Position numbers and translations under genes: made by a program. From positions 3,844,001 through 3,908,000 of the forward strand of contig NW_027270946.1 of the NCBI RefSeq assembly GCF_040938485.1: 64,000 nucleotides of DNA, in the 5' to 3' direction. Positions 1-3,868 of this stretch are shown here, piece by piece; position 1 is the first letter of the stretch, and every line of letters starts with the position of its first letter. The stretch is from Diadema antillarum (Eukaryota). The notes under the pieces are model-generated. The model was given only the letters and a program-made list of their open reading frames with translations, did not search any database and was not told the origin of the DNA.

Positions 1-2
1 TG

Positions 3-194
3 GGGAGGGGTTATGACCGCCGAACATCACATTCCAACCCCATGGCCGGTTCATCTGCACAGCCTTTTTTAGGGAAGGCTTGGAGGGGGAGACCTCGAGA
101 TCCTCCTCACACTTACACACCGACAGCAGCAAGGGAGGGTGGCAACAAGCAGCCAACCTACCACAGGCAGAGCCAAAGCCAGGGGAGGAAATAG
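3..194 (+). CDS. C-terminal end of DIRS gag-like ORF (partial)
   Basis: Open frame GRGYDRRTSHSNPMAGSSAQPFLGKAWRGRPRDPP...QSQGRK* ending at TAG 192-194; low-complexity R/G/P/Q tail overlapping the start of the pol frame. Confidence 0.6.
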   Translation, partial: GRGYDRRTSHSNPMAGSSAQPFLGKAWRGRPRDPPHTYTPTAAREGGNKQPTYHRQSQSQGRK

Positions 195-2140
195 AACAGG
201 TAGGTGACTATGAACACAACATAGATAACGATCTAGTTACAACACCAGCTGTCGTCGGAGGTCGTCTGAAGCCATTTTTCCCTGCTTGGGAAAATATCAC
301 GAGAGACTCACACATTATTCAAGCAGTTCAAGGCTATACAATAGAATTTGACTCAGAAAAATTTCCCCCTTCTCGAGAAAAACCTCTGCGCTCTTACAAG
401 CGGAATGCTGAAGAAACAGCCAAGATTGACCATGAGATTCTGGTTCTGGAAGAAAAACAGGTCATTGAAAAATGTGCCCATGAAGAAGGGGAATTTATTT
501 CAGAGGTTTTCACGAGACCAAAAAAGAATGGAGGAGTTCGATTAATTCTTGACCTGTCCGAACTCAACAAAAGTGTTCAGTACCAACACTTTAAAATGGA
601 TAATATTCAATCTGGTATTCTACTCCTCTCAAAAGGGTGTTATATGGCTTCAGTAGACCTCCGTGATGCATACTACACAATTCCCATTCACTTAGACTCT
701 CGTAAATATCTCCGCTTCGTATGGAGAAACCAATTGTGGCAGTTCAAAGCTTTGCCAAATGGCTTATCTTCCGCCCCAAGACTGTTCACCAAAATACTAA
801 AACCAGTGCTTGCCTTACTAAGACAACAGGGGCACACAGTTTTGTCGTACTTGGACGACACACTGATAATTGGGAACAATAAAGCAGACACTCGCTCAGC
901 AGTGCAAGCCACCACTGACCTTTTGACTAGTCTAGGGTTCATTATTCACTCAGAGAAATCGGTACTTGAACCATCCCGTGAGATTGAATTTCTGGGTTTC
1001 CATTTAAATACATCTGAAATGAGAATCACCCTCCCAGCCAGTAAAAGCAATGACATTCAAGATGCATGTCGATCCTTACTTGCTAATAACAAACCTAGTA
1101 TCCGGGAGGTAGCTAAAGTCATTGGGAAGATTGTGGCTGCCTTACCAGCATCTCAGTACGGCCCCTTGCATTACAGGCAGCTGGAAAGGGAAAAAATCAG
1201 AGCCCTGAGAAAACAGAAAGGACATTTCGATAGACATATGAGCCTATCAAATAGAGCCAAGGCGGAACTAGTTTGGTGGTCATCCCATGCACATCTCGTG
1301 TCTAAACCCCTGTACCCAGGGAAAGTATCAAAAGAAATAAGAACAGATGCTAGTGGACAAGGTTGGGGTGCCACAGACCTGCAATCCAAGACAGGTGGTA
1401 GATGGAATGCTCAAGAATTAGCAAGAGCAGCAGGTAATGAAATAAACTATCTGGAAATGCTAGCAGCCGGTTTGGGACTCAAAAGCTTCTGTTCAAATGT
1501 CAGAGATGCACATATACTGTTGAGATTAGACAACACCACAGCGGTGACATACTTGAATAACATGGGCGGCGTCAAGTCTGAAGCATGTAACGAAATGGCG
1601 TTGCAAATTTGGGATTGGTGCAGTAGACGACAAATTTGGATAACAGCATCTCACTTAGCAGGCTCTAAGAACACAGAAGCTGATACGATGTCAAGGAAAT
1701 TCAATGACAATATAGAATGGATGCTAGACAAGACAATATTCAATGAGATAGTGCAGAGGTATGGGTTACCAAACGTAGACCTTTTTGCCACCAGACTGAA
1801 TGCCCAGCTCCCAACATACGTCTCCTGGAGACCAGATCCAGGGGCATGGGCAGTAGACGCATTCACTATTGACTGGGGACCCCTAGTATTTTATGCGTTT
1901 CCCCCATTTAGCTTGGTTGCAAAGTGTCTCCAAAAAATCAGACAAGATGGCGCTAGGGGAATTTTGATAGTGCCAAATTGGCCAACACAGCCCTGGTATA
2001 CCGTACTACGTAACATGCTATTGGAGGAGCCCTGGGTATTGCGAAAACACCAGTTGTTAACCCAACCCATTACAGGTAGACCCCATCCACTTACACATCT
2101 CTCCCTCTTATGTTGCAGGGTTGGAGCAAACATTTCATAG
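80..2140 (+). CDS. DIRS pol: reverse transcriptase, RNase H and methyltransferase-like domain
   Basis: RT motifs ILDLSELN, VDLRDAY, LPNGLSSAP, YLDD. RNase H motifs TDAS, INYLEM, LDNTTAV, NTEADTMSR. MT-like motifs VDLFATRLN and YAFPPF. The frame is open from 17 but has no ATG until inside RT; the start at 80 is TTG. Confidence 0.95.
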   Translation: MEGETSRSSSHLHTDSSKGGWQQAANLPQAEPKPGEEIEQVGDYEHNIDNDLVTTPAVVGGRLKPFFPAWENITRDSHIIQAVQGYTIEFDSEKFPPSREKPLRSYKRNAEETAKIDHEILVLEEKQVIEKCAHEEGEFISEVFTRPKKNGGVRLILDLSELNKSVQYQHFKMDNIQSGILLLSKGCYMASVDLRDAYYTIPIHLDSRKYLRFVWRNQLWQFKALPNGLSSAPRLFTKILKPVLALLRQQGHTVLSYLDDTLIIGNNKADTRSAVQATTDLLTSLGFIIHSEKSVLEPSREIEFLGFHLNTSEMRITLPASKSNDIQDACRSLLANNKPSIREVAKVIGKIVAALPASQYGPLHYRQLEREKIRALRKQKGHFDRHMSLSNRAKAELVWWSSHAHLVSKPLYPGKVSKEIRTDASGQGWGATDLQSKTGGRWNAQELARAAGNEINYLEMLAAGLGLKSFCSNVRDAHILLRLDNTTAVTYLNNMGGVKSEACNEMALQIWDWCSRRQIWITASHLAGSKNTEADTMSRKFNDNIEWMLDKTIFNEIVQRYGLPNVDLFATRLNAQLPTYVSWRPDPGAWAVDAFTIDWGPLVFYAFPPFSLVAKCLQKIRQDGARGILIVPNWPTQPWYTVLRNMLLEEPWVLRKHQLLTQPITGRPHPLTHLSLLCCRVGANIS

Positions 2141-3120
2141 CTCAAGGACTGACGGAGGAGACTGCTGATATAATGGCAGCGTCTTGGAGGAAATCCACCA
2201 AGGAGCAGTATATGGTGTATATTAGGAAGTGGCAAAGGTTTTGTCATGAGCGTCACTTATGTTGGACCCATACGAAGGTGGGAAATTTGTTTGCGTTTTT
2301 TAATTCTATGTACAAAAATGGAGCAAGCTACAGCACCTTGAATACATCAAGGAGCGCACTAGCATCAGTTGTTCTTCTACGGGACGAGAAATACACCATT
2401 TCTACACATCCTTGGATTTCCCGGTACTTCAGGGGCATTTTTAATCTCCGACCACCCACTCCGAGATACAGCTTCATATGGGATGTGGGCAAGGTGCTGA
2501 GCTACCTCAGACAAGTAACTCCAGCTCATAAGATTTCGCTGTGTCAACTGACACACAAAGTATGTTTTTTACTAGCGTTGACTTCTGCCCAAAGAGTGCA
2601 AACACTTTCATACCTAACCCTTGACAATGTGAAGGCGTCCAAAGATTGTGTGGAAATAGCAGTGGCTGATTTGATAAAGCAGAGTCAACCTGGGAATGTG
2701 GGAGTGAAAGTAACACTGAAAGCCTTTCCCGAGGATAAGAAACTCTGTGTTGTACACTATGTTAAAGAATACATTAACAGAACAAGCACATTGAGGAAGG
2801 AGGTGAATGCACTATTTGTCACCTACAAGCAACCCCATGGGAAGGCATCAAAGCAAACCATCGCTCGATGGATAAAAACTGTGTTGAGAGCATCAGGTAT
2901 CGACACCGATCTCTTCAAAGCACATTCAACGAGATCGGCGGCAACCTCATCTGCCAAGAGGAATCATTTTCCAATAGCAGACATTCTCAAGCATGCTGGG
3001 TGGAAAAATGAATCCACGTTCAGGAATTTTTACCTTAAACCGGCATCCCAGGCAACATCTTTTGGACAAGCAGTTCTGGGACAACAGACCTCTAGGAAGG
3101 GACAAGATTCAGTCCTGTAA
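2110..3120 (+). CDS. DIRS tyrosine recombinase (YR)
   Basis: LALTSAQRVQTL (Arg), AHSTRSAA (H-x-x-R), HAGW, FRNFY (Tyr); 336 aa stop-free, overlapping the pol end by 31 nt in the -1 frame. Confidence 0.95.
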   Translation: MLQGWSKHFIAQGLTEETADIMAASWRKSTKEQYMVYIRKWQRFCHERHLCWTHTKVGNLFAFFNSMYKNGASYSTLNTSRSALASVVLLRDEKYTISTHPWISRYFRGIFNLRPPTPRYSFIWDVGKVLSYLRQVTPAHKISLCQLTHKVCFLLALTSAQRVQTLSYLTLDNVKASKDCVEIAVADLIKQSQPGNVGVKVTLKAFPEDKKLCVVHYVKEYINRTSTLRKEVNALFVTYKQPHGKASKQTIARWIKTVLRASGIDTDLFKAHSTRSAATSSAKRNHFPIADILKHAGWKNESTFRNFYLKPASQATSFGQAVLGQQTSRKGQDSVL

Positions 3121-3197: not shown

Positions 3198-3346
3198 TCT
3201 CATATTACGCAAATTCAGCCAATGGCTAATGCGCAGCCAATGGCTGAATTCTCTACCGTACATTACGAGATAAAATAGAAAATTAAATGAAAAACATTGA
3301 AATTTAATTTGTATTTTATGAGTAATGGGAGGATAGAGAATTCAGC
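3198..3346. repeat. DIRS internal complementary region (ICR)
   Basis: 3198-3255 is a 58-bp direct repeat of 3474-3531; 3275-3346 is the 72-bp reverse complement of 3519-3590. Confidence 0.85.
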
Positions 3347-3473
3347 ACCCTCCGCTCCCTCCCTTACTCTGAACAGCCTTAAATGTGGCTTATACAAGAT
3401 CTATTTTATCTCGAAATATTTTTTTCACAGTAGTCATCAGCTTTTAAAGATGGCGATTGCGCGCGGAACGGCC

Positions 3474-3590
3474 TCTCATATTACGCAAATTCAGCCAATG
3501 GCTAATGCGCAGCCAATGGCTGAATTCTCTATCCTCCCATTACTCATAAAATACAAATTAAATTTCAATGTTTTTCATTTAATTTTCTAT
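3474..3590 (+). repeat. Outer part of DIRS right ITR plus right extension
   Basis: Complementarity to the ICR stops at ...AATTTTCTAT (3590), which defines the element's 3' end. Confidence 0.8.
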
Positions 3591-3643: not shown

Positions 3644-3868
3644 TACTGTATACGCTGTTATTTTCGCGTACGGATATTTTCGTGAATGACGAGGTCACAG
3701 TCATTTTCGCGAGATGTTGTTTTCGCGAATCGACGCCGATGCTTACGTTAATGCACTGTTAACAAAGCGCACTGAGACATTTTCACATGTTGTTAAATTC
3801 ACGATCCAACTGTGATTCGCAAAATTAAAGAGAATTAAACCCTCGCGAAAATAACAGCTTATACAGTA
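3644..3868. mobile_element. MITE with TA-CTGTA...TACAG-TA termini
   Basis: TIRs TACTGTATACGCTGTTATTTTCGCG / CGCGAAAATAACAGCTTATACAGTA (one mismatch); internal TTTTCGCG motifs. Confidence 0.85.

Follow-up and report, generated by a model that had tools for sequence, protein, structure and literature searches.

How does a DIRS1-like retrotransposon translate its start-less pol and recombinase ORFs? These elements are widespread, and the literature examined, in the parts of the texts available, is silent on the matter. One such element opens the window, by which we mean the whole 64,000-nucleotide stretch of Diadema antillarum DNA analyzed here. The original prediction, made from the sequence alone, was that this element makes a Gag-Pol fusion by programmed -1 frameshifting. 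We consider it likely that a -1 frameshift on U UUU UUA near the end of gag yields Gag-Pol from the full-length RNA and a predicted Gag-recombinase from a spliced RNA.

An intact DIRS1-like element at the start of the window

The element at the start of the window is an intact DIRS1-like retrotransposon, a known kind of element. The window begins inside it, and its left part lies in the DNA upstream. The first ORF, of 443 codons, has its ATG 1138 nt before the start of the window, at L002:363, and its 3' end occupies positions 3..194 of the plus strand, with the stop codon TAG at 192-194. It is labeled gag from its position and its homologues, the nearest named of which are from sea urchin; Pfam gave no match for the gag tail. 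The pol ORF (17..2140, plus strand) is in the -1 frame with respect to gag, being open for 707 codons from stop to stop. RVT_1, at residues 168-330 (E 6.5e-23), was the only match that Pfam reported in it at E<=0.001. The parts of pol that we take to be RNase H and methyltransferase were assigned by motifs and position only. As had been predicted, the RT ORF has no ATG ahead of RT: the first ATG of the -1 frame, at 596, is residue 194 and falls within the RVT_1 match. The third ORF (2080..3120, plus strand) encodes a tyrosine recombinase with matches to Phage_integrase (E 1.5e-11) and Phage_int_SAM_1, so that gag, RT and tyrosine recombinase ORFs are all present.

The termini are also those of a DIRS1-like element. 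The right terminus spans 3447..3590, and 3447-3553 is an inverted repeat of the left terminus (L031:4628-4734). The two arms are 107 nt long and 91% complementary, and they are inverted repeats, not split direct repeats. The left internal complementary region (3198..3277, 80 nt) matches the left end of the element, upstream of the window, with 100% complementarity, and the right one (3275..3346, 72 nt) is 100% complementary to 3519-3590. The two share 3 nt (3275-3277), which form the circular junction. Inverted termini and internal complementary regions are among the features stated for DIRS1-like elements in the available part of PMC3266345. The element is young, since 25 stop-free genomic copies reach >=97% against RT query residues 1-185 and the six T's and the splice donor described below are kept in all 30 fetched loci of its own family.

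Several other features were seen along the way. In two copies of the element (G000:C253:7358 and C2109:7431), the open frame at pol extends over 1034 codons, and one extra base is present near the end of pol; these copies possibly carry pol and recombinase in one frame. Directly past the DIRS element, at 3644-3868, is a 225-nt MITE-like element with 25-nt inverted ends (96%). Further along, the minus strand holds a single 405-codon ORF at 47662-48879, which resembles a trypsin-like secreted protease whose catalytic motif is altered, and a 373-codon ORF at 53273-54394, which looks like a fragment of a non-LTR retrotransposon reverse transcriptase.

A slippery heptamer in phase with gag

The predicted -1 frameshift site is the heptamer T TTT TTA at 65..71 on the plus strand, which covers Phe402-Leu403 of Gag. 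The gag-frame reading proposed for 63-83 (CCT TTT TTA GGG AAG GCT TGG) was confirmed, and the frame is the end of the 443-codon Gag ORF, which places the heptamer in the X XXY YYZ phase as claimed. It agrees with the canonical rule, namely X XXY YYZ in phase with Y being A or U and Z not G, as defined in the part of PMC3561942 available. From the site, an open -1 frame leads into a conserved ORF that lacks a start, which is the arrangement expected of a canonical signal.

The original prediction also stressed that 13 nt at this site are identical to the HIV-1 gag-pol slippery site. Among the literature matches listed for the 13-mer (65-77), most are HIV papers, as far as the available text of the matches goes. 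GGGAAG follows U6A in only one of 21 U6A families, and the identity beyond U6A and the following G is a coincidence. Judged from these sequence comparisons, the likeness to HIV-1 reaches the heptamer and the following G, and neither the 13-mer nor the stem.

The site is conserved in phase among families

Three genome searches supplied the own-genome loci, which were chosen across score classes before their gag/pol overlaps were inspected; to these were added 80 metagenome loci that an RT alignment had picked up. A filter for an RT start and a long upstream ORF kept 32 of the 80 metagenome loci and dropped 48; 43 own-genome loci were used. Removing five further loci in which the overlap was missing or fused left 70. 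With a clustering cutoff of 80% RT identity, these formed 37 clusters, which became 35 families once the broken copies L067 and L157 were merged into theirs. At least 13 distinct DIRS1-like families are present in the own genome. Several of them have numerous open-frame copies that are nearly identical, and a first look returned 2773 RT candidates. Three metagenome RT loci (L114, L123 and L125) have 438-682 open codons before RT and perhaps carry gag and pol in one frame.

The pol ORF is in the -1 frame in 67 of the 70 loci kept. Of the 35 families, 31 have a strict in-phase XXXYYYZ heptamer where gag and pol overlap (13/13 from the own genome and 18/22 from metagenomes, where four lack it), compared to 2.4 expected when bases are shuffled and 8.7 when the same Gag is recoded synonymously; as families share ancestry, these tallies are not independent trials. 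Counted by phase, 34 overlap heptamers are in phase and 7 are in the two other phases combined. TTTTTTA accounts for 21, AAAAAAC for five, GGGAAAC, CCCAAAC and CCCTTTT for two each, and GGGTTTT and CCCTTTC for one each. The substitution of other canonical heptamers for TTTTTTA is what -1 frameshifting predicts and what a splice acceptor does not. Comparison of related families had been put forward as a check on the predicted frameshift, and the site proved to be conserved in both nucleotide sequence and phase in distant families. In-phase conservation and heptamer replacement together support the core claim, that programmed -1 frameshifting produces Gag-Pol, and indicate that the slip site is real and a conserved recoding signal.

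Another possible explanation for a T-run at this place is slippage of a polymerase, in transcription or reverse transcription, where an extra T would put Gag-Pol in one frame. HIV-1 RT slips at U6A in vitro, according to the available part of PMC5737442, and one genomic copy, L057, has seven T's and a single gag-pol frame of 859 codons. L057 (G000:C144:235200-240800) is a copy of another family, and its seventh T could come from reverse-transcriptase slippage or from a homopolymer error in the assembly. Slippage of this kind needs no phase, but phase is kept (34 in, 7 out), and GGGAAAC and CCCAAAC sites occur without a long run. Moreover, the element's own family has six T's in 30/30 loci, and no T-run indel was listed in the RNA reads at a depth of ~25. 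We regard polymerase slippage as extremely improbable.

The slip-site codons are fixed

Conservation of the site might instead be due to Gag itself, if the motif were kept solely for the Gag peptide Pro-Phe-Leu-Gly and pol started at its own ATG or at a non-AUG codon. Phe-Leu is the sole invariant pair of the Gag tail. Of the 130 Gag homologues (among 169) that passed the motif filter, 113 carry it in their tail, against 11 expected by shuffling; the count of 113 may be biased upward, as the search profile included the FL column. A Met is present before RT in three families, but between the slip site and the RT start it is absent from ten of 13. Codon use also speaks against a peptide constraint. 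It was compared in the ten U6A families of the own genome, whose RT is 47-65% identical to that of this element, at 105 columns with an invariant residue (32 in Gag and 73 in RT, with Met and Trp left out). Only two of the 105 columns use a single codon in all ten families, and these are the TTT and TTA of the slip site, while all 103 others vary in codon. Leu is encoded by TTA in 11-12% of cases and Phe by TTT in about half. In-phase TTTTTTA is found a single time among the 13,592 codon positions outside the overlaps and in 10/10 families inside. We hold an explanation by the Gag peptide to be highly improbable.

No conserved stem follows the site

An 8-bp stem at 83..108 on the plus strand (pairs 83-90/101-108, one G-U) had been proposed as the downstream element of the signal. 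The stem can form, with an 11-nt spacer after the heptamer, but it is no better than shuffled sequence and is not conserved. At the element itself, four downstream windows gave z values of -0.18 to -1.50 against shuffles. For the 65 nt 3' of the site in 31 families, the mean z was -0.30, compared to -0.24 upstream and -0.14 further downstream, and one of the 31 families had a downstream fold at z<=-2. In models restricted to stem-loops, no stable stimulatory stem appeared about 6-8 nt downstream; neither these folds nor Rfam, which had no match in window 1-400, identified a 3' stimulator. The slip site can itself sit in a hairpin at 61-80 (61-68 with 73-80). The fold of 60-200, one of five windows, has z -2.07, with the slip site within the hairpin.

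HIV-1 needs a stem 8 nt downstream, and U6A without structure gives ~0.1% frameshifting, according to the part of PMC3561942 available. The absence of a conserved stem here may mean that the rate is low, or that a pseudoknot, long-range pairing or a protein factor is involved.

A splice removes pol and enters the recombinase in phase

The RNA data came from three polyA runs, in which 550 reads lie on the element, mostly 95-99% alike and on both strands. The RNA donor's element differs from this one by 1-5%, and the donor species is possibly other than that of the genome. One run (X12) contained a joint from 199 to 2119, supported by four reads with three start points and a shorter side of 64 nt; no other joint was listed. 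The joint removes a GT..AG intron at 200..2118 on the plus strand (1919 nt), which takes out nearly all of pol, and the reads have the form expected of a spliceosomal GT-AG intron. The donor, CAG/GTAGGT, lies 5 nt past the gag stop, and the acceptor is preceded by a pyrimidine tract. The joint, which lies beyond the gag stop, falls between codons on both sides: a codon of the -1 frame ends at 199 and one of the recombinase frame begins at 2119. The spliced exon enters the recombinase ORF at codon 2119 for 333 codons. Across 63-199, the -1 frame is the only one of the three that is free of stops. The segment 65..199 (plus strand), from the slip site to the donor, provides 45 stop-free codons of the -1 frame that would be common to the predicted Gag-Pol and Gag-recombinase. 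The original prediction had missed this splice to the recombinase from the same -1 frame.

Intronless genomic copies were also sought: among 42 matches, which exclude the RNA donor's own DNA, none ends at 199, and none begins at 2119 among the 40 of 66 candidates scored. The X1 contigs lack the joint, but they do not bridge the sites. In a second family (L049), 21 partial RNA reads were found, none across the slip site or the splice sites. RNA support for the expression layout is modest.

The phase of the splice sites is conserved as well. The best-scoring donor, ranked with a simple score of our own, has phase 0 relative to the -1 frame in 13/13 own-genome families and 15/22 metagenome families, and the recombinase acceptor keeps its place and phase in 10/10 U6A families. 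Two AAAAAAC families of the own genome showed no clear candidate for the recombinase acceptor. In the distant families L069, L071 and L073 (RT ~40% identical), the heptamer A AAA AAC is followed at once by the gag stop, and this in turn by a donor-like GTAAGT; L072 has AAAAAAG at the slip-site position.

Since the splice links the -1 frame in phase to the recombinase, one slip site likely gives either Gag-Pol or Gag-recombinase, and since the donor is past the gag stop, the spliced product would still need the frameshift. This could be avoided if only pol depended on frameshifting and the recombinase were translated from the spliced RNA by re-initiation at its own ATG past the gag stop, without a Gag fusion. 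The position of the donor just past the gag stop would suit re-initiation, and a Met lies 19 codons past the acceptor in this element and two other families. Five of the ten U6A families, on the other hand, have no Met in the first 50 codons past the acceptor, and the -1-frame phase of the donor, kept in 13/13, would be needless. We find re-initiation quite unlikely.

The strongest rival to frameshifting is a second splice. TTTTTTAG (65-72) could be a 3' splice acceptor, through which an upstream exon with an ATG would join base 73 and start both pol and recombinase with no frameshift. The element demonstrably splices (199/2119), a T-tract plus AG fits the acceptor pattern, and G follows U6A in 19/21 families, so the site can usually also be read in this way. 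The frequent G fits equally the role reported for the 3' G-run in HIV-1 frameshifting (PMC5737442, available part). In the two remaining families, T follows U6A and the AG is absent, and ten families carry other heptamers in place of U6A. The surroundings of TTTTTTAG also differ from those of the recombinase acceptor: the upstream pyrimidine share is 0.51 versus 0.81, and a competing AG lies <=20 nt upstream in 7/10 families versus 0/10. T/C changes would be tolerated in an acceptor tract, but there are none in the ten families. No joint was found here at a summed depth of ~25, which with a threshold of 3 reads has limited power, while the recombinase joint was listed. On the joint, the pyrimidine tract, the competing AG and the constancy of the AG, TTTTTTAG did not pass as a 3' splice acceptor, and we rate this explanation as very unlikely.

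Discussion

Our results point to programmed -1 frameshifting as the way in which this element reaches both of its start-less ORFs. Translation by most ribosomes would end at 192-194, with Gag (443 aa) as the product. For the minority of ribosomes that slip at 65-71, another 43 codons in the -1 frame would follow, up to 199. On unspliced RNA, these ribosomes would continue into RT and make a Gag-Pol of ~1,090 aa. Where 200-2118 has been spliced out, they would enter the recombinase instead and make a fusion of ~780 aa. The ORF layout, the conservation of the site at the nucleotide level, the conserved phase of the splice sites and the splice in the RNA of a near-identical element were observed directly; we infer the frameshift, its rate and the two fusion proteins from sequence.

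We favor, by a little over even chances, a broader reading in which DIRS1-like elements across animals use a two-layer switch. Frameshifting would set the ratio of Gag to enzyme, and the splicing of pol would choose between RT and recombinase. Such a switch is not known to have been described for other retroelements and would operate without a conventional 3' structure; a shift of this kind suggests that an unknown stimulator may be involved. If the recombinase is made as a Gag fusion, this would explain how it arrives in the particle with the cDNA. There is also a consequence for annotation, as gene callers will cut RT to an internal Met and miss the real start of the recombinase. The many natural U6A sites that lack a conserved stem downstream are a resource on other drivers of frameshifting, and the exact coordinates given here for the slip site, the 45-codon shared segment and the splice in RNA are testable.

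We found no description of a DIRS gag-pol slip site or of a splice that removes pol; the search covered texts other than the main DIRS reviews, and an earlier mention is possible. The words "slippery" and "splic" do not occur in the available parts of PMC3266345, PMC3783388 and PMC9210276, which give no expression mechanism. In the parts seen of PMC13003380, PMC7192593, PMC4157794, PMC4495291, PMC6681497 and bioRxiv 2021.01.25.428050, neither the slip site nor the splice is described for DIRS. The element otherwise resembles the DIRS1-like elements of PMC3266345 (available text) in its gag, pol and recombinase ORFs, its inverted termini and its internal complementary regions that overlap by 3 nt.

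With HIV-1 gag-pol (PMC3561942 and PMC5737442, in the parts available), the element shares an in-phase U UUU UUA near the end of gag, a 3' G-run and a start-less pol in the -1 frame. At the HIV-1 site, a stable stem follows 8 nt downstream (PMC3561942, same limits), whereas the sole stem here lies at 11 nt and is neither significant nor conserved. Also unlike HIV-1, the element has no protease or DDE integrase, and its -1 frame leads into a splice as well. Animal LTR retrotransposons likewise have heptamer shift sites between gag and pol, and a survey cited in PMC5009743 has pol in the -1 frame in 28/51 elements, but their Pol includes the integrase; the 300,000 characters of that text examined make no mention of DIRS. 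Shared ancestry with LTR elements is as possible an origin for the site as convergence with retroviruses.

Ribosomal frameshifting in a tyrosine-recombinase retrotransposon has been proposed before, for Ngaro, where Poulter and Butler (2015) placed it at the overlap of RT/RH and recombinase (as given in the available part of PMC13003380). In the present element, unlike in the Ngaro proposal, the shift would lead from gag into pol, and the recombinase would be reached by splicing out pol. Alternative splicing of a single genomic RNA selects the protein made for retroviral env, foamy virus pol and copia gag, and in these systems the spliced RNA has an in-frame start. The donor of the element described here differs from theirs in lying past the gag stop.
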